Virus record (IMG/VR): IMGVR_UViG_2703718823_000008
Reading direction: 5' to 3' (one strand)
DNA from: a virus
Lineage: Duplodnaviria > Heunggongvirae > Uroviricota > Caudoviricetes
DNA: 33,510 bases
Made by a program: the position numbers and the translations under genes. The notes beneath the pieces were generated by a model. That model was not told the DNA's origin. It made no database searches and was given only the letters and a program-made list of their open reading frames with translations. Below, one piece after another: positions 1 to 11,902 of this stretch (position 1 is the first letter of the stretch; each line of letters begins with the position of its first letter).

Positions 1-201
1 ACTGGCGATTCTTTATTAGTGAGCCGGGAATTATTTCAGTTGAGGATTTACCTCCCGGCTGGGGATTACTTCACGTTGTTAACGGAAGAGTACGGAAAGT
101 ACATGGATGGCCCAGGGGTAATTGCTGTTGGGGTAATCCTGACGATAAGCCATTTACTGGAAATAAGCAGGTTGAATGCGATTACATGTTATCTGCATTA
201 A
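1..201 (+). CDS. Possible 3' end of an ORF that begins upstream of the window; product unknown
   Basis: Frame 1 is open from base 1 to the TAA at 199-201; no recognisable motif. Confidence 0.25.
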   Translation, partial: TGDSLLVSRELFQLRIYLPAGDYFTLLTEEYGKYMDGPGVIAVGVILTISHLLEISRLNAITCYLH

Positions 202-3552: not shown

Positions 3553-4602
3553 GTGCGGGTATTACTTCGACCTGTTCTGGTGCCGGAACTTGGCCTGGTG
3601 GTCCTTAAGCCCGGACGCGAATCACTGCCTGTTTTTCATTGCGGCAGGGTGCTGGTGGAGCCGGAACCGAAAAGCATGCGTGCTCTGCCGTCCGGGTTTG
3701 TACCTGCCGTTCGCCAGCCGCTGGCGGAAGATAAATCATTACTGCCATTTTTCAGCGATGAGCGGGTGATCCGTGCTGCGGGTGGCGCTGGTGTACTGTC
3801 TGACTGGTTATTACGTCACGTGAAATCCTGCCAGTGGCCACACGGCGATTATCATCACAGCGAAACCGTCATTCACCGTTACAGTACCGGCGCGATGGTG
3901 TTGTGCTGGCACTGCGACAACCACCTGCGGGAGCAGACATCTGATTCACTGGAGCTACTTGCTCAACAGAATCTGGCCGCCTGGATGATTGACGTCATCC
4001 GTCACGTAATGAATGGCGCACAGGAGCGTGAATTATCGCTGGCTGAATTATCCTGGTGGGCGGTCTGCAATCAGGTGGCTGATGCGCTTCCGGAATCTGT
4101 ATTGCGTCGTTCGCTGGGATTACCGGTGGAAAAAATTCGCTCCGTATACAGTGAGAGCGACATCATACCGGGAGAGCAGACCGCCACCAGCATCCTGAAG
4201 CAGCGGACAAAAAACATAGCGCCACCGCTTCACGCCCACCAGCCACAAACCACGCCACAGGAAAAGACGGTAGTAAGCATCGCCGTTGATCCGGAGTCCC
4301 CGGAATCTTTCATGAAACGGCCTAAACGTCGTCGCTGGGTTAATGAAAAGTTCACGCGCTGGGTTAAGACGCAGCCGTGTGCATGCTGTGGAAAGCCAGC
4401 TGATGATCCGCATCACTTGATTGGCCATGGGCAGGGCGGTATGGGGACAAAATCCCACGATATTTTCACACTACCGTTGTGCCGGGAGCACCACAACGAA
4501 CTTCATGCTGACCCGCTGGAGTTTGAGAAAAAGTACGGGTCCCAGGTTGAGTTAATTTTTCATTTTCTTGATCACGCCTTTGCGACTGGCGTGCTCGGGT
4601 AA
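3553..4602 (+). CDS. DUF968-family nin-region protein (YdfU-like) with C-terminal Cys/His HNH-like motif
   Basis: 349-aa ORF; GTG start with GGAGG SD; C-terminal CACCGKPADDPHH...CREHHNELH motif; position upstream of rusA as in lambdoid prophages. Confidence 0.8.
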   Translation: MRVLLRPVLVPELGLVVLKPGRESLPVFHCGRVLVEPEPKSMRALPSGFVPAVRQPLAEDKSLLPFFSDERVIRAAGGAGVLSDWLLRHVKSCQWPHGDYHHSETVIHRYSTGAMVLCWHCDNHLREQTSDSLELLAQQNLAAWMIDVIRHVMNGAQERELSLAELSWWAVCNQVADALPESVLRRSLGLPVEKIRSVYSESDIIPGEQTATSILKQRTKNIAPPLHAHQPQTTPQEKTVVSIAVDPESPESFMKRPKRRRWVNEKFTRWVKTQPCACCGKPADDPHHLIGHGQGGMGTKSHDIFTLPLCREHHNELHADPLEFEKKYGSQVELIFHFLDHAFATGVLG

Positions 4603-4974: not shown

Positions 4975-5654
4975 ATAACCAGTATTTACAGTTTGTTCGT
5001 GAGCAACTCATGATTGCCACTGCGGATCTCAGTGGGGCGACAAAAGGCCAGCTGGAAGCCTGGCAGGAGAATGCCCTGTTCGATACAGGGCGTTACAGAC
5101 GCAAAAAAATTCGTTATCGCGATGAGGTAACCGGAAAAATGATCACGCGGGATAATCAACCGATCCCGGGTAAACAATCACTGGCGAAAGGCTCATCAAT
5201 TGCGCTGGTCAGTCCGGTTGAGTTTGCAACATCATCGTGGCGGCGTGCCGTTCTGGAACTGGAAGAACATCAGAAGGCGTGGTTACTGTGGTGCTACAGT
5301 GGAAATGTTTGCTGGGAAGATCAGGTCACTATAACACAATGGGTATGGGGTGAGTTTAAAGCTCAGGCTGGTACCAGAAAAATTGCAGGGAAAACGCTGG
5401 ATCGTCTGAAGAAACTGATTTGGCTGGCGGCACAGGATGTGAAGAGTGAGCTGGCAGGGCGTGAGACCTATGAACATCAGGAGTTAGCGGTGTTCATAGG
5501 AGTTGCTAAATCTACATGGACAAAAACACACAGGCCTCACTGGTTGGCTATGCGGGGTAGTGCAGAGATGCTGGACAGGGATGCTCTTATTTCAGTAATG
5601 CGGGTACGTTCACGGCAAAAGTCGATTAATTTAGAACCATATCTTGCAAAATAG
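4971..5654 (+). CDS. Late-gene antiterminator Q-like protein
   Basis: Start overlaps the rusA stop (ATGA); position immediately after rusA and before stacked terminators and the late genes; family assignment is by position and loose recall, not a verified motif. Confidence 0.65.
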   Translation: MNNQYLQFVREQLMIATADLSGATKGQLEAWQENALFDTGRYRRKKIRYRDEVTGKMITRDNQPIPGKQSLAKGSSIALVSPVEFATSSWRRAVLELEEHQKAWLLWCYSGNVCWEDQVTITQWVWGEFKAQAGTRKIAGKTLDRLKKLIWLAAQDVKSELAGRETYEHQELAVFIGVAKSTWTKTHRPHWLAMRGSAEMLDRDALISVMRVRSRQKSINLEPYLAK

Positions 5655-5725
5655 AACTGAAGAGCATATATTCCGTGTAAATCTGATATTTTGCAGATTT
5701 TGTTCGCGATGGCAAAGTAAGCAAA

Positions 5726-5748
5726 CCCCGCCGCCGAGCGGGTTTTTT
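5726..5748 (+). terminator. Intrinsic terminator-like hairpin with T6 tail downstream of the Q-like gene
   Basis: CCCCGCCGCCGAGCGGG followed by TTTTTT. Confidence 0.45.
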
Positions 5749-5912
5749 GTTGGCTTAACAGGTTATAATGTACAGTGCGAAACTGCCTGTTCAGCAGAAT
5801 CATAGAGTGTTGACTGATACTGTCGCTGTACCCTGATGGGACTTGTGAGACTTCCGAACTGGAAGCCAGGAGTAGCAATAAGGTGATGACAAGCCTGCTG
5901 CCCTGTGTAAAA

Positions 5913-5941
5913 GGCACCTTAATGGTGCCTTTGTCGTTTTT
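5913..5941 (+). terminator. Intrinsic terminator (GGCACC-TTAA-GGTGCC followed by a T-rich tail)
   Basis: Perfect 6-bp stem with 4-nt loop, followed by TTTGTCGTTTTT. Confidence 0.55.
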
Positions 5942-5952
5942 ATCAAAAGATC

Positions 5953-5976
5953 CCCGCCACTGGCGGGTTTTTTTTT
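5953..5976 (+). terminator. Strong intrinsic terminator, candidate tR' of the late operon
   Basis: CCCGCC-ACT-GGCGGG stem-loop followed by T9; the NN at 5978-5979 lies just 3' of it. Confidence 0.6.
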
Positions 5977-5983
5977 CNNAGAC

Positions 5984-6181
5984 ATGCTGAAACAGCAGGA
6001 TATGACAGAAACCGCCAGAGTGGTGTTTAATGAATTAAGCGTCACCGAACCGGCGACAGTCGGGGAGATAGCGCAGAATACTTACCTTTCACGCGAACGC
6101 TGCCAGTTAATACTGACCCAGCTGGTTATGGCGGGTCTGGCAGACTATCAGTTCGGTTGTTACAGACGCCTTCCGCAGTGA
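5984..6181 (+). CDS. Small hypothetical protein (65 aa), possibly a helix-turn-helix protein
   Basis: ORF immediately after the tR'-like terminator, followed by its own terminator; no confident motif. Confidence 0.4.
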   Translation: MLKQQDMTETARVVFNELSVTEPATVGEIAQNTYLSRERCQLILTQLVMAGLADYQFGCYRRLPQ

Positions 6182-6331: not shown

Positions 6332-7390
6332 ATGCTTAATACTGTAAAAATATCCAGTTGTGAGTTAATCAACGCCGACTGCCTTGAATTTATCCGGTCG
6401 TTACCCGAAAATTCTGTTGACCTGATAGTCACGGACCCGCCGTACTTTAAAGTGAAGCCTGAGGGCTGGGATAACCAGTGGAAGGGCGACGATGATTACC
6501 TGAAGTGGCTGGACCAGTGTCTTGCGCAGTTCTGGCGGGTGCTGAAACCTGCCGGAAGTCTTTACCTGTTCTGTGGCCATCGCCTGGCATCTGATATCGA
6601 AATCATGATGCGTGAACACTTCAGTGTGCTGAACCATATTATCTGGGCAAAGCCGTCCGGACGCTGGAACGGGTGCAACAAGGAAAGCCTGAGGGCGTAT
6701 TTCCCCGCCACAGAGCGCATTCTGTTCGCGGAACATTATCAGGGGCCGTATCGCCCGAAAGATGCCGGGTATGAGGCGAAGGGCAGGGCACTGAAACAGC
6801 ATGTGATGGCCCCGCTGATTTCTTACTTTCGTGATGCGCGTGCTGCCCTGGGGATAACGGCAAAACAGATAGTGGATGCCACAGGAAAGAAAAATATGGT
6901 GTCGCACTGGTTCAGTGCCAGCCAGTGGCAGTTACCGGACGAAAGCGATTATCTGAAATTACAGGCGCTGTTTGCCCGGGTGGCAGAAGAGAAGCATCAG
7001 CGCGGAGAACTGGAAAAGCCACATCACCAACTGGTCAGCACATACAGTGAACTGAACCGGCAGTATACGGAACTGCAGAGTGAATATAAGCATCTGCGGC
7101 GGTATTTCGGTGTGACGGTGCGGGTGCCGTACACCGATGTGTGGACGCATAAACCGGTGCAGTACTATCCCGGGAAACATCCGTGCGAAAAACCGGCAGA
7201 AATGCTGCAGCAGATAATCAGTGCGAGCAGTCGTCCGGGTGACCTGGTTGCAGATTTCTTCATGGGGTCGGGTTCGACAGTCAAAGCAGCGATGGTGTTG
7301 GGGCGTCGTGCTACAGGCGTTGAGCTGGAGACTGAACGTTTTGAGCAGACGGTCAGGGAAGTTCAGGATTTAGCCAGCCAGAACGGATGA
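6332..7390 (+). CDS. Orphan DNA methyltransferase (N6-adenine or N4-cytosine, beta class)
   Basis: DPPY motif near the N-terminus (LIVTDPPYF) and FxGxG S-adenosylmethionine-binding motif (FFMGSGST) near the C-terminus; no adjacent restriction endonuclease gene. Confidence 0.9.
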   Translation: MLNTVKISSCELINADCLEFIRSLPENSVDLIVTDPPYFKVKPEGWDNQWKGDDDYLKWLDQCLAQFWRVLKPAGSLYLFCGHRLASDIEIMMREHFSVLNHIIWAKPSGRWNGCNKESLRAYFPATERILFAEHYQGPYRPKDAGYEAKGRALKQHVMAPLISYFRDARAALGITAKQIVDATGKKNMVSHWFSASQWQLPDESDYLKLQALFARVAEEKHQRGELEKPHHQLVSTYSELNRQYTELQSEYKHLRRYFGVTVRVPYTDVWTHKPVQYYPGKHPCEKPAEMLQQIISASSRPGDLVADFFMGSGSTVKAAMVLGRRATGVELETERFEQTVREVQDLASQNG

Positions 7391-7430
7391 TATTGCAGGA
7401 TTAGTTACGTACCGTTATTATCCTGCGCCC

Positions 7431-7506
7431 GGCCCTTTAGCTCAGTGGTGAGAGCGAGCGACTCATAATCGCCAGGTCGCTGGTTCAAATCCAGCAAGGG
7501 CCACCA
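7431..7506 (+). tRNA. tRNA with CAT anticodon, Ile2 (lysidine) type, resembling the host ileX/ileY tRNA and the ileZ of Stx phages
   Basis: Manual cloverleaf fold: acceptor GGCCCTT/AAGGGCC, D-loop with GG, anticodon loop CTCATAA, T-loop TTCAAAT, 3' CCA encoded. Confidence 0.85.
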
Positions 7507-7515
7507 TATCACATA

Positions 7516-7592
7516 CCGCCATTAGCTCATCGGGATAGAGCGCCAGCCTTCGGAGCTGGCTGCGCGGGGTTCGAGTCCTCGATGGCGGTCCA
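7516..7592 (+). tRNA. tRNA-Arg with TCG anticodon
   Basis: Manual cloverleaf fold: acceptor CCGCCAT/ATGGCGG, anticodon stem CCAGC/GCTGG with loop CTTCGGA (G at position 37), T-loop TTCGAGT, 3' CCA encoded. Confidence 0.75.
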
Positions 7593-7870
7593 TTATCTGC
7601 ATCATGCGTTGTTAGCTCTGATGAGTGAATCATTGTCTTTTGAGCAACAGGCTATCATATAAGATAGTCTCAGATTTCCTTGTTTATTCTCGCCGGATGC
7701 TTCGTAGATATTTGCAGGCATCTGTATGCAGGGGTATTATTGCGGCATATATCATCCGGAAAAATAAAAACTACATGCTGATCCGGAGATGATAGTTACA
7801 AGTCCTCCCGGATCCCGCATATTTACTATATTTTATAGATAATTGTTCTTGTTAATATGGAGATGGATAA

Positions 7871-8299
7871 ATGTATTGCCGTGCTGTACCGGTTCTTGTT
7901 TTGATATTAGCCAGTCTGACAACTGGCTGCACAAAAGATGTATCGACAAATAATTATGATGCTTCGCTGCATCACTCAGATAAATTAATAAAGTCGCAAA
8001 ATTTGAGCTTATCGGAACGTACCCCTGATGCCAGTGAAGAAATCCGGCAGTATGCCATTCAGGTCAGGGAAGCCATAGAAGAACAGTTAAAGGATGCGGG
8101 TAAGTATTCAGGAAAAGAGTGTTCACTGAGAATGTATATGGCCCCGAATGGTCTTCTGCTACAGGTTAAAAGAGAAAGCGGTGATCCCGATTTATGTCGT
8201 GAAGCGATGAATGCAGTAAAGAATGCTGATATACCATCACCACCGTCTTCAGGAGTATATAAAGCATTTAGAAATGGCGTGCTGGATTTTAAACTCTGA
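7871..8299 (+). CDS. Lipoprotein carrying a stand-alone TolA C-terminal (domain III)-like domain
   Basis: 142-aa ORF; signal peptide with lipobox-like LTTGC (Thr at +2); C-terminal 80 aa aligns by eye to E. coli TolA domain III (GKxC-LR---APnG-LL, GDP-LC, IP-PPS, VY--F-N--LDFK); GGAG SD; low-GC gene. Confidence 0.8.
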   Translation: MYCRAVPVLVLILASLTTGCTKDVSTNNYDASLHHSDKLIKSQNLSLSERTPDASEEIRQYAIQVREAIEEQLKDAGKYSGKECSLRMYMAPNGLLLQVKRESGDPDLCREAMNAVKNADIPSPPSSGVYKAFRNGVLDFKL

Positions 8300-8321
8300 C
8301 TGGGGGAGAAGATTTTCTCCT

Positions 8322-8612
8322 GTCCAGATGATTTTGGGGTGCTGGAAAGATATTGTGCTGTGAAGTGTTAAATTCCTCACAATTCAGTAAGTTGACAGTT
8401 GCCTGTCAGACTGGGCATTTGTTAAAAAAATTTCGCATGGTGAATCCCCCTGTGCGGAGGGGCGACTGGTGAACGGTATGATCTCTTTGATGATCGTAAG
8501 CGAGAATACGCGGGTTTAGTGTCACCGGGCTGAACTCACCGGGAGGCACCCGGCACCATGCTCATGGTGATACAGAAATGCGGCTTCAGCCCCTCTCTGG
8601 AGGGGCTTTCTT
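8322..8612 (+). repeat. Structured noncoding repeat unit A (about 270-290 bp) ending in an intrinsic terminator; candidate sRNA or 3'-UTR element
   Basis: Shares conserved blocks with units B and C (GTTAAAT-CCTCACA-TTCAG; TGAATCCCCCTG-GCGGAGGGGC; ACCGGGAGGCACCCGGCAC-ATG); terminator GCCCCTC-TCTG-GAGGGGC plus T-tail at 8589-8612. Confidence 0.6.
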
Positions 8613-8618
8613 ATGGAC

Positions 8619-8646
8619 AAAAAAGCCCGCGCTGGGAGACGCGGGC
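8619..8646 (-). terminator. Minus-strand intrinsic terminator capping repeat element D1 (about 8619-8745)
   Basis: GCCCGCG/CGCGGGC stem preceded on + by A6 (T6 on the minus strand); flank GGCAAGGAATAAA-CAATAAAACGTGAAGTAAT conserved with D2. Confidence 0.5.
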
Positions 8647-8765
8647 GGCAAGGAATAAACAATAAAACGTGAAGTAATATTTCAGCTGGCGAATAATACC
8701 CCATAGTAATCACTCTGCGCAACTGCGCGGCCTTTTTCGAATTGCGGGCTGTAGTCTCCCTTCTG

Positions 8766-8930
8766 CCGGGTGGCCTGGTTGCAGATTTCTTCATGGGGTA
8801 GGGTTCGGCAGTTAAAGCAGCGATGGCGCTGGGGCGTCGTGCTATAGGCGTTGAGCTGGATACCGGGCGTTTTGAACAGACTGCGCAGGCAATCAGGGAT
8901 ATATTTATCGGTAGCTGTTTGCAGAAGTAA
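8766..8930 (+). pseudogene. 3' fragment of a second, diverged DNA methyltransferase gene (homologous to 7232-7390) with an in-frame TAG
   Basis: Nucleotide homology to the 3' end of the intact methyltransferase; translation gives LVADFFMG*GSAVKAAMALGRRAIGVELDTGRFEQT; no upstream part of the gene. Confidence 0.7.
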
Positions 8931-9004
8931 TCTCCCAAAATTCCATTTTTGGAATGCAGTGGTTGTTGCTGTAGTGTGGGCAAGTTCTGGAACTGGCTTC
9001 GTCC

Positions 9005-9281
9005 ATTGCAGATGATTGTTAGCTGGATATCAGTTACCTCATGGAAATGTTAAATGACTCACAATTCGGTTGATGGACTATTGTCTGATTGATGGAAGTC
9101 TTGTAAAAACGAGCCAGCATAGTGAATCCCCCTGTGCGGAGGGGCGTCTGACATGGTCTCCATAGCGATGGTCACAATACGCAGATTCAGTAGTCAGGCT
9201 GAATCTACCGGGAGGCACCCGGCACTATGCTGCTTATGGTGTATACACAGCGATCGGCCCCTCTCCTGAGGGGCTTTTTTT
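9005..9281 (+). repeat. Structured noncoding repeat unit B ending in an intrinsic terminator
   Basis: Same conserved blocks as unit A; terminator GCCCCTC-TCCT-GAGGGGC plus T7 at 9257-9281. Confidence 0.6.
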
Positions 9282-9289
9282 GTGCGGGA

Positions 9290-9543
9290 AAAGGCTGTGT
9301 TGTTAAATGTTAAATCCCTCACAGTTCAGATGGTTGATGCTTGCCTGTCTGACGGGGAGTTGTTAAAAAAGTTCTGCATGGTGAATCCCCCTGAGCGGAG
9401 GGGCATATCAGCGCAGGTGTTTCTACTCTATCCTTTCTGTGCGGGTTCAGGTGCTGATACTGAACTCACCGGGAGGCACCCGGCACCATGTAGTATACAG
9501 AGATTAGGCATACATCCAGGCTCCTCATTGCAGGAGCCTTTTT
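9290..9543 (+). repeat. Structured noncoding repeat unit C ending in an intrinsic terminator
   Basis: Same conserved blocks as units A and B; terminator AGGCTCCT-CATTGC-AGGAGCCT plus T4 at 9518-9543 (different stem sequence, same structure). Confidence 0.6.
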
Positions 9544-9549
9544 ACATGC

Positions 9550-9577
9550 AAAAAAACCGCTCCAGGGAAGAGCGGTT
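9550..9577 (-). terminator. Minus-strand intrinsic terminator capping repeat element D2 (about 9550-9668)
   Basis: CCGCTC/GAGCGG stem preceded on + by A7; flanks conserved with D1 while the stem sequence differs and pairing is preserved. Confidence 0.5.
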
Positions 9578-9767
9578 GGCAAGGAATAAATAACAAAACG
9601 TGAAGTAATTTATTCAGCGCCCTAATAATACCTTACAGTAATCACATTGCGCAACTGTATGTAAGGGCGTATTTCTTTTTTGCGGGCTGTTTTGTGTGAC
9701 TTTTGTGTTTCCGGAGGTCAGCCCGAGCCTTCTCTGACTCAGAACATTATTCCGGCCGGGAGGATTC

Positions 9768-11756
9768 ATGGCATTTAAACACTACGATGTGGTCAGGGCG
9801 GCATCGCCGTCAGACCTTGCTGAACGACTGACACAAAAACTGAAGGAGGGGTGGCAGCCATTTGGCAGCCCTGTCGCCATCACGCCTTATACCCTGATGC
9901 AGGCTATTGCGGCGGAAGGTGATGTCACCACGCCGGTGCTGGTTAAACCATCGGGTGACGGGGAGACGGCTATCAGCAAGACCGGTGAGCCTGAATATTA
10001 TTATGTTGTCGCGCTGGCGGGTCAGTCAAATGGTATGTCTTTTGGAGAGGGAGTACCGTTACCTGATTCTTATGATCGCCCTGATCCGAGAATTAAGCAG
10101 CTTGCCCGTCGACGTACCGTTACGCCGCGAGGCGTTCCCTGCACCTATAACGATGTTATTCCGGCAGATCATTGTCTTCATGATGTGATGGATATGAGTG
10201 AAAAAAATCACCCCCGGGCAGACCTCAATAAAGGTCAGTATGGTTGTGTGGGTCAGGGACTGCATATTGCCAAAAAACTGTTACCGTTTATACCGGCGAA
10301 TGCGGGCATTCTTCTGGTTCCATGCTGTCGTGGAGGCTCGGGAGTGACTACAGGTAATGAGGGAACATTTAACGCCTCTTCCGGGGCAAGCCCTGATTCT
10401 GCATTGTGGGGAGCTGATAAGCCGCTGTACCAGGATCTGTTAAGTCGCACGAAAGTCGCGCTGGCTAAAAATCCCGGAAATATCCTGCTGGCGGTAATCT
10501 GGATGCAGGGGGAGAGTGATCTGGCTTCAGGAAGCCAGAGTCATAATGCTCTTTTTACTGGCATGGTACAGAAATTCCGTGCTGACATCGCTGATATGTC
10601 AGGGCAGTGCGTGGGGGGCTCGGCACTGAGCGTTCCGTGGGTTTGTGGCGATACGACGCATTACTGGAAAGAAAAATATGCTGCGTCTTATGAAACTGTA
10701 TACGGTGGATATAAAAATAAGGCAGCGCAGAATATTCACTTTGTCCCTTTCATGGTTGATGGAAGCGGGGTAAATGTGCAGACCAATAATCCGGCAGAAG
10801 ATCCTGATATTGAAGGTATTGGCTACTCCGGTTCGAAGTGGCGAGACAGTTCTGTCAGCTGGACGTCAGGTGACAGGGCAAGCCATTTCGGTTCATGGGC
10901 GCGGCGTGGAATTATTTCAGATCGTCTTGCAACCGCAATTCTGACCCACGCAGGCAAATACCCGGCGTTTATCACCGGGCGGTCAGAAACGGTAGTTGCA
11001 GGAGATGAACGGGAAAACGTTACATCCGGAAATTTCCCGTCACCTGTGGAGGATGCTGCGTTATCACAGGATGCACCTCAGAGAAGAACGGTTGTTGAGT
11101 ATAATTCAGCTGTTGAGAAAGACAGCCTCGGTGGTAACTGGGCAGCCCAGCACTGGAATGCCCGGGACGGTGTCGCCGAGTTTGTTAATGATGAAAGCAG
11201 ACAGGTGCTGAAGATTAAGCAGCATGAGGGCAAACAGGGACCGTGGATGCTGTCAGCAGGAGTATCAGCTGAAGATGCCCGTGCTCTGTATGAAAATGGC
11301 GGTGAAATAAAACTTGAATTCAGGTTGCCGGATGGTACCCAGGTTGCAGATGACAAATACCTCTTTGGTGTTTACCTGCCAGTTTCCGGGTGGACTCAGG
11401 AAGGCAACGGCAGCAATATGATGGCCTCCTTTTTCACTCAGACAAAAGCCAGTAACCTGGATGTCATGTATCACGGTAAAACACAGCCTAATACAAAAAT
11501 TGAGTCATTCGGTGCGGTTAATAACAACTGGCACACGCTTGTCTTTAAATATAAAGGAGGCGGCAATCACCAGGTTATTCCGGTACTTGACGGAGAAGAG
11601 AAAACAGGTTTTGCACTGAAAGAAGGTCCGGTCACTTCTGCCTTTACGGTGGATAACATCACAGTGACAGGTATCAGCGCAAATCAGGGAAAATCTTATC
11701 CTGTCATGTTCCGCAGTATCATGGTAAGCATTAACCAGGCAACCTCTTCATCATAA
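9768..11756 (+). CDS. NanS-p-like sialate O-acetylesterase (DUF1737-like N-terminus plus SGNH-hydrolase-like domain)
   Basis: 662-aa ORF; N-terminus MAFKHYDVVRA...GWQPFGSPV resembles the DUF1737 domain of prophage NanS-p/YjhS-type esterases as recalled; GGGAGG SD; position between the stx-equivalent slot and the lysis cassette. Confidence 0.8.
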   Translation: MAFKHYDVVRAASPSDLAERLTQKLKEGWQPFGSPVAITPYTLMQAIAAEGDVTTPVLVKPSGDGETAISKTGEPEYYYVVALAGQSNGMSFGEGVPLPDSYDRPDPRIKQLARRRTVTPRGVPCTYNDVIPADHCLHDVMDMSEKNHPRADLNKGQYGCVGQGLHIAKKLLPFIPANAGILLVPCCRGGSGVTTGNEGTFNASSGASPDSALWGADKPLYQDLLSRTKVALAKNPGNILLAVIWMQGESDLASGSQSHNALFTGMVQKFRADIADMSGQCVGGSALSVPWVCGDTTHYWKEKYAASYETVYGGYKNKAAQNIHFVPFMVDGSGVNVQTNNPAEDPDIEGIGYSGSKWRDSSVSWTSGDRASHFGSWARRGIISDRLATAILTHAGKYPAFITGRSETVVAGDERENVTSGNFPSPVEDAALSQDAPQRRTVVEYNSAVEKDSLGGNWAAQHWNARDGVAEFVNDESRQVLKIKQHEGKQGPWMLSAGVSAEDARALYENGGEIKLEFRLPDGTQVADDKYLFGVYLPVSGWTQEGNGSNMMASFFTQTKASNLDVMYHGKTQPNTKIESFGAVNNNWHTLVFKYKGGGNHQVIPVLDGEEKTGFALKEGPVTSAFTVDNITVTGISANQGKSYPVMFRSIMVSINQATSSS

Positions 11757-11902
11757 AACAAAAAAACGCCAGCGCAGAGGAGAACGGGAGGATAAGTCTG
11801 ACGCTGGCGGAGGAGTATCCTCATGGAGAACGATATGTAACACATATCGCCTTTCTTTTATTGAAAAGTCATCGCCATTGTCAACCATAACGGTAAGAAA
11901 CT

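Follow-up and report, generated by a model that had tools for sequence, protein, structure and literature searches.

A probable stack of five small RNA genes from two known families in the cargo slot of an Escherichia coli lambdoid prophage

Layout of the array in the cargo slot

The viral sequence IMGVR_UViG_2703718823_000008 (Caudoviricetes; 33,510 nucleotides (nt), referred to here as the window) contains, between a tolA-like lipoprotein gene and a carbohydrate esterase gene, an array of terminator-capped repeat units, which we call A, B and C (plus strand) and D1 and D2 (minus strand; Table 1). The initial annotation had proposed that these units are candidate small RNA (sRNA) genes in the slot occupied by the Shiga toxin genes (stx) in other phages, and our analyses agree: the region is very probably a stack of five prophage sRNA genes, of which three belong to the STnc100 family and two to the EcOnc08/21/42 family. 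Both families are already known, as are their association with Hfq and the convergent arrangement at this site, convergent sRNA pairs having been described between a cargo gene and a conserved phage open reading frame (ORF) in eight prophages of strain Sakai (Tree et al., 2014; PMC4104026), and the array is therefore not new in kind. What is particular to this locus is the copy number, the rare chimeric unit D2, and the pattern of cassettes that share one promoter.

The window derives from an E. coli lambdoid prophage, whose late region it represents. A stretch of 1471 bases from the region was found with 100% identity in four human isolates. The RefSeq gene order in the identical region is RusA, antiterminator Q, a DNA methyltransferase, tRNA-Ile, tRNA-Arg, a "TolA" lipoprotein and a methyltransferase pseudogene fragment, followed by a SASA (nanS-p type) esterase, DUF1378 and DUF826 genes, a holin and a lysozyme. 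This surrounding gene order identifies the site as the cargo ("moron", stx) slot of Shiga-toxin phages. In RefSeq the stretch from the tolA-like gene to the esterase carries no RNA gene, and all five sRNA genes are left unannotated.

Repeat finding recovered the three plus-strand units as three-copy families, each unit having a conserved block of about 40 nt upstream and identical 31-nt blocks in each copy (repeat family D4), and the two minus-strand units as two-copy families, the repeats at approximately 8619–8722 and 9548–9654 being 78–83% identical over about 109 nt (E about 5e-20 to 2e-19). A consensus scan of positions 7400–10000 found 12 terminator-like sites, against 2.1 ± 1.1 in shuffled sequences. 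The terminators of D1 and D2 stand back-to-back with those of A and C, and unit B has no minus-strand partner. The capped units on both strands, and the terminator stem sequences quoted for them, had been described correctly; the repeats themselves are confirmed, and the earlier unit size of about 270 bp is corrected here to likely transcripts of about 222–232 nt. The methyltransferase fragment, which lies inside the array and outside any repeat unit, is a recombination scar.

Table 1. Positions of the sRNA units, promoter elements and bounding genes in the window
Feature	Position	Strand	Details
Unit A, STnc100 copy 1	8406–8618	+	172.3 bits; likely RNA ~8381–8612 (~232 nt); terminator 8588–8607
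Unit B, STnc100 copy 2	9088–9283	+	120.8 bits; likely RNA ~9061–9282; terminator 9256–9275; TGTTAAATG block 9048–9056
Unit C, STnc100 copy 3	9348–9549	+	164.1 bits; likely RNA ~9321–9544; terminator 9518–9539; TGTTAAAT block 9308–9315
Unit D1, EcOnc08/21/42-family sRNA	8619–8687	−	predicted ~69 nt; G/U-rich stretch, seed CCUUGCC, terminator 8646–8625
Unit D2, second EcOnc08/21/42-type sRNA	9548–9619	−	D-type seed with different terminator AACCGCUC...GAGCGGUU (9577–9555); fold z −5.4
D1 promoter	8693–8722	−	TTGCGC (8722–8717), 18-nt spacer, TATTAT (8698–8693)
D2 promoter	9625–9654	−	TTGCGC (9654–9649), 18-nt spacer, TATTAT (9630–9625)
Possible extended −10 element of unit A	8366–8374	+	TGTTAAATT; predicted start near 8381
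tolA-like lipoprotein cargo gene, 142 amino acids	7871–8299	+	ORF; RefSeq product name; directly after tRNA pair, in stx position, just 5′ of unit A
DNA methyltransferase 3′ fragment (pseudogene)	8766–8930	+	RefSeq annotation of identical region; resembles 3′ end of intact gene 6332–7390; same scar in related locus L045
nanS-p-type SASA carbohydrate esterase	9768–11756	+	conserved phage ORF bounding the sRNA site; same layout in Sakai Sp5, Sp4 and Sp15

Plus-strand units of the STnc100 family

Rfam was scanned at its gathering thresholds, which is 47 bits for the STnc100 model RF02076. Units A, B and C are all full-length matches to this model (positions 1–206 of 206), with E values of 2e-39 to 3e-26, and the terminator of unit A is a hairpin followed by a T-run, as in units B and C. 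The three units resemble known STnc100 RNAs in their closing helix, two invariant hairpins and terminator, and in their place between a cargo gene and the nanS-p esterase. They differ from known STnc100 loci in that three copies occur within 1.2 kb rather than one, in that the central segment and 3′ tail differ from copy to copy, and in that the cargo gene is a tolA-like lipoprotein gene rather than stx.

According to later papers STnc100 is the same RNA as EcOnc27 and as sRNA103 of strain EDL933; EcOnc05 of Sakai belongs to the same family, which is related to PasD, and STnc100 has been found in vesicles of Shiga-toxin-producing E. coli. EcOnc27 and EcOnc05 were crosslinked to Hfq and gave Northern bands of about 222–247 nt: EcOnc27 has size forms of 235 and 247 nt, the longer of which is destabilised without Hfq, and EcOnc05 is about 222 nt (Tree et al., 2014; PMC4104026). 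In Sakai prophage Sp5 (our locus L003) we find STnc100 at 3923–4128 (+), just after stx2B, and the anti-sRNA AsxR at 4130–4182 (−), both between stx2B and the esterase gene. The EcOnc27 Northern probe maps within the Sp5 copy, whose 3′ module is shared by unit C, and the EcOnc05 and EcOnc13 probes map within the STnc100 copies of Sp4 and Sp15. PasD1 and PasD2 of enteropathogenic E. coli (EPEC), which are EcOnc13 homologues, are reported to be structural relatives of STnc100 from the same prophage region, and to be Hfq-dependent. The PasD probe has no match with up to six mismatches in the window, the region of the PasD seed UGUGAG is absent from A, B and C, and the PasA probe sequence does not occur in the window.

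The structure of the family was analysed from 176 STnc100 matches in 126 sequences (the window and 125 loci), from which 65 distinct full-length copies were aligned. RNAalifold gives a long-range helix closing a junction that carries two near-invariant hairpins, together with one covarying hairpin and the terminator: in total 34 pairs, of which eight are double-changed, a number reached by none of 500 shuffles. Across the 65 copies 99.6% of cells in these 34 pairs are paired, compared with 39–54% when the register is slid. Within the window, the closing helix of unit B shows a compensated change from G-C to A-U (GCAUAGUG / CACUAUGC), and unit A alone folds into the family shape at −88.6 kcal/mol (z −3.2). 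The central segment is hypervariable, with indels concentrated there, and the 3′ tail is variable. The covariation supports the STnc100 fold across the 65 variants. The compensatory change first proposed from the contrasting terminator stems holds only in part: the covariation is real across the family, while the particular contrasts between D1 and D2, and between A or B and C, mostly reflect swapped modules, as described below.

The 5′ block TGTTAAAT...CTCACAATTCAG is near-invariant in the 65 copies whatever precedes it, and the sequence upstream of the block is not conserved. This block may comprise an extended −10 element and the start of the transcript. The motif CUCACA lies within the block in every STnc100 copy (in the window at 8375–8387, 9057–9069 and 9316–9329, all on the plus strand); the related sRNAs PasD1 and PasD2 are reported to share this motif as their target site.

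Minus-strand units, shared promoter and mosaic origin

Units D1 and D2 are homologous to the EcOnc08/21/42 loci of Sakai prophages Sp4 and Sp15, to which D1 is 93% identical over 122 nt and D2 79–80% identical over 106 nt. The published EcOnc08/21/42 probe is found exactly in the Sp4 and Sp15 homologues and has five mismatches to D1. Like these RNAs, D1 and D2 have a G/U-rich stretch and a CCUUGCC seed, which in both lies directly 5′ of the terminator, and a convergent position; each departs from the common type in the G/U-rich stretch, by a single G-to-A change. The predicted D RNAs are 69–71 nt long; their 5′ part is mostly open and their terminator strong. A search of D1 and D2 with the AsxR (RF02703) and AgvB (RF02702) models gave no match even at E ≤ 10, where the Sp5 control scored 88 bits, and Rfam at permissive thresholds gave only chance-level matches (OmrA-B, 21.8 bits, E 0.86); the D family has no Rfam model. 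A scan for exact complements returned only a 13-nt match at 65–77 (+), ATTACTTCACGTT, which is an identity to the conserved D1/D2 core on the same-sense strand (about 0.03 expected by chance); it lies on the non-complementary strand and has no evident function, and we treat it as chance.

Homologues of both RNA families are discrete Hfq-associated RNAs (PMC4104026, Table S2; PMC8550237, Table S6). EcOnc08, EcOnc21 and EcOnc42 are recorded as Hfq peaks, for which a Northern blot gave a band of about 271 nt (PMC4104026), and the EPEC homologue, E2348C_1409.E2348C_1408.IGR, is 182 nt long and was noted to have EcOnc08/21/42 homology (Pearl Mizrahi et al., 2021; PMC8550237).

When D1 and D2 are aligned with the Sakai copy, two variants and the AsxR locus, the upstream flank is invariant, and TTGCGC, 18 nt and TATTAT or TAAAAT occur in a single register. 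The same motif thus stands in the same register in front of AsxR in Sakai Sp5. The AsxR start has been mapped as a primary 5′ end, and alignment with this start, mapped by rapid amplification of cDNA ends (RACE), puts the starts of D1 and D2 near 8687 and 9619. D1 and D2 share with AsxR, AgvB and EcOnc03 the locus, orientation, upstream flank and promoter, and their predicted length is similarly short. Their bodies are unrelated to those of the anti-sRNAs: they lack the conserved 3′ 42 nt (GUAUCUCAUGC..UUGCCCGAACCCA.UCGGGC), and the bodies do not align. A plus-strand hairpin and T-run (CTGCGCAACTGCGCGG CCTTTTTCG) at 8715–8730 overlaps the −35 of the D1 promoter on the opposite strand, and is conserved in Sakai Sp5 (L003 4211–4226).

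A scan of viral contigs with the promoter pattern found it preceding at least five bodies, namely D, AsxR, an EcOnc03-like body, another anti-sRNA variant, and a type represented by locus L002; two matches to it lie in L046, a locus with 100% identity to window positions 8040–9800. A modest new point, which we did not find stated in the literature consulted on these sRNAs, is that several unrelated sRNA bodies are driven by one promoter, that of AsxR/AgvB; it bears on how accessory sRNAs diversify.

The L002-type body ends in CUUGCC followed by an A(A/G)CCGCUC terminator, and both the terminator and the upstream flank of D2 match this lineage. Because D2 joins a D body to a terminator and flank from another cassette lineage, the contrast between the D1 and D2 stems represents module exchange rather than paired substitution, and stepwise compensatory evolution of the two terminators is rejected. 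The D family proper has an almost uniform terminator, and the D seed is kept across cassettes with different terminators. D2 also differs from EcOnc08/21/42 in its rarity, the exact variant being present in only nine of 5426 complete E. coli genomes, compared with 1111 for the D family, which in addition occurs in 58 phage records, most of them of Stx2a phages. The terminators of A and B on the one hand and C on the other are likewise alternative 3′ modules, which recur elsewhere in other combinations and are a product of recombination.

The array as a whole is also mosaic. A related locus, L045, has the order methyltransferase, tolA-like gene, STnc100 and D; a methyltransferase fragment; an AraC-like gene and a 92-amino-acid ORF; four head-to-tail STnc100 copies; and the esterase. 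Window positions 7600–8963 match L045 4178–5542 at 97%, and 8954–9491 match L045 6822–7369 at 90%. From these two matching blocks, the window lacks the 1.28 kb that holds the AraC-like gene in L045, and the array seems to derive by deletion from a longer arrangement found at other loci. The four head-to-tail copies lie at L045 6916–7939, and also at L055 3337–4358, with no coding gene between them; the AraC-like ORF encodes 241 amino acids, and neither it nor the 92-amino-acid ORF is present in the window. STnc100 loci occur in 2697 E. coli genomes. Among sequences with at least one STnc100 copy, 85 have one, 33 have two, five have three and two have five, and the full array as in the window was found in nine genomes. 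The multi-copy layout probably arose by recombination and deletion among cargo cassettes that each had an STnc100 gene at the 3′ end. In L126, from a derivative of EPEC strain E2348/69, the STnc100 gene is split by ISEc13 (3604–3775 and 5303–5392), and the adjoining D-family gene is intact.

Transcripts, targets and proposed mode of action

As an alternative to five sRNA genes, the units could be 3′ untranslated region (UTR) or processing products of the cargo mRNA or the late transcript, with the minus-strand RNAs as antisense by-products. Such an origin would fit the start of unit A some 70 nt past the tolA-like stop codon, just as STnc100 starts about 75 nt past stx2B in Stx2 phages, as well as the two size forms of EcOnc27 and the reported processing of PasA from a longer transcript. 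Units B and C, however, have no coding gene in front of them, nor is there a coding sequence between the four head-to-tail copies of L045; the invariant TGTTAAAT/CTCACAATTCAG block opens every copy regardless of the upstream sequence; and the D promoter aligns with that of AsxR, whose start is a mapped primary 5′ end. We consider processing an improbable source of the units.

It is still less probable that the units act mainly in cis, as bidirectional terminator or insulator modules that also supply homology for the exchange of cargo cassettes, the RNA being incidental. The back-to-back terminators, the identical 31-nt blocks and the freely recombining 3′ modules would all suit this role, as would the related loci, in which each cargo gene is followed by an STnc100 copy and the comparison of the window with L045 gives a clean deletion between copies. 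On the other hand, about 30 nt suffice for a terminator, whereas these RNAs measure 230 nt and contain internal hairpins and a long-range helix that covaries; the homologues are abundant Hfq-bound RNAs with specific partners; and the D seed is conserved between cassettes whose terminators differ. That the units encode small proteins can practically be dismissed, in spite of open frames of 31–103 amino acids that overlap the units (the longest, at 9282–9593, spanning unit C) and one fully open frame in 10 of the 65 copies, since copy lengths fall in all modulo-3 classes (31/20/14), indels fall mainly in the central segment, the longest run free of stops has a median of 51 codons, no frame is common to the 65 copies, as had been noted earlier for the units themselves, and conservation tracks base pairing instead.

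Returning to five sRNA genes, the array lies behind the lambdoid prophage's Q-dependent late promoter, with A, B and C on the strand of the late operon. The RNAs of A, B and C are predicted to be about 220–235 nt long and to end at the intrinsic terminator, and D1 and D2 would each be transcribed from their own sigma-70-type promoter, the same as the AsxR promoter in the Stx2 phage Sp5. In the lysogen the RNAs would most likely be made from their own promoters and end at their own terminators, bind Hfq, and pair in trans with mRNAs of the host and of virulence genes; the partners expected for the D family are those already published, namely the cfa and dppA 5′UTRs, pcm, tir and perA. On induction, Q-modified polymerase should pass the plus-strand terminators towards nanS-p and the lysis genes. 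The RNAs would belong to the means by which prophages of the Shiga-toxin type redirect gene expression in the host, and the window would represent a non-toxigenic relative with a denser sRNA set than the textbook Stx2 phage. The practical value lies in annotation, five genes being missing from RefSeq and the D family lacking an Rfam model.

Partners of the EPEC D homologue have been recorded by ligating and sequencing interacting RNAs (RIL-seq), with chimeras to the cfa 5′UTR (767), dppA 5′UTR (197), pcm (118), perA (30), tir (29) and espC (26), and a target motif GGCAAGG, complementary to CCUUGCC (PMC8550237). In the K-12 cfa leader, CGGCAAGG at about −136 is an exact complement (8–9 bp) of CCUUGCCG in D1, and the G/U stretch of D can pair with a C/A-rich element of the dppA leader. 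Duplexes of D with the K-12 cfa and dppA leaders were predicted both unrestricted and with local windows.

Several observations weigh against the interpretation as five active sRNA genes. The duplex energies of the D seed with the two leaders are no better than those of shuffled seeds (19–57 of 60 shuffles reach the observed value); target prediction for the conserved blocks thus gave an exact seed match in the cfa leader without an energetic advantage, so that the computational support for targeting is the seed match alone, and the published RIL-seq is the evidence, with which the computation is compatible. Some D-family terminators contain uncompensated mismatches. The published EcOnc08/21/42 probe sits on the proposed D promoter and detected an RNA of about 271 nt. 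From the probe position and the published sizes of 182 and about 271 nt, a longer D transcript must start further upstream, and the form of 69–71 nt is the one that we infer; for D1 the long form may be absent, because the methyltransferase fragment replaces its upstream context. Finally, no function has been assigned to STnc100 in the literature, and any of the five copies could be silent, since expression, like Hfq dependence and targets, is known from homologues in other strains; the transcript ends, targets and roles of individual copies at this locus are predictions by analogy with these.

We tentatively suggest, as a possibility that we think has the lesser chance of being right, that the site beside STnc100 is a fixed "expression socket", with one promoter, position and orientation, into which seed and terminator cassettes are swapped. 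The cassettes would possibly act in opposition on the same host circuit, and the array would be a multiplexed set of regulators. AgvB, which occupies the same site in other prophages, blocks GcvB and relieves repression of dppA. The D cassette has a GcvB-like G/U-rich stretch and captures dppA mRNA in EPEC. If the suggestion is true, the regulators of the set are two D variants, distinguished by point changes within the G/U stretch, together with three STnc100 copies that each have a variable segment of their own.

A few minor observations concern the flanks of the array. Two tRNAs were located at 7431–7592 using ARAGORN, which assigns the first (7431–7506, +) as Met (CAT); the RefSeq and Sakai annotations of the equivalent gene give tRNA-Ile (ileZ type). 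There is an ambiguous base at about 5977–5979, seen as X in the translation of ORF 5800–6045, and the genes upstream of 5984 (region 5654–5984) are shifted by about 113 nt compared with the otherwise identical record NZ_CP075852. A further candidate sRNA with a terminator is found at 11758–11853 (−), with a weak match to Esr41 (31.8 bits; threshold 102); it is convergent with the end of the esterase gene, in the same position as EcOnc52/PasA in other prophages.

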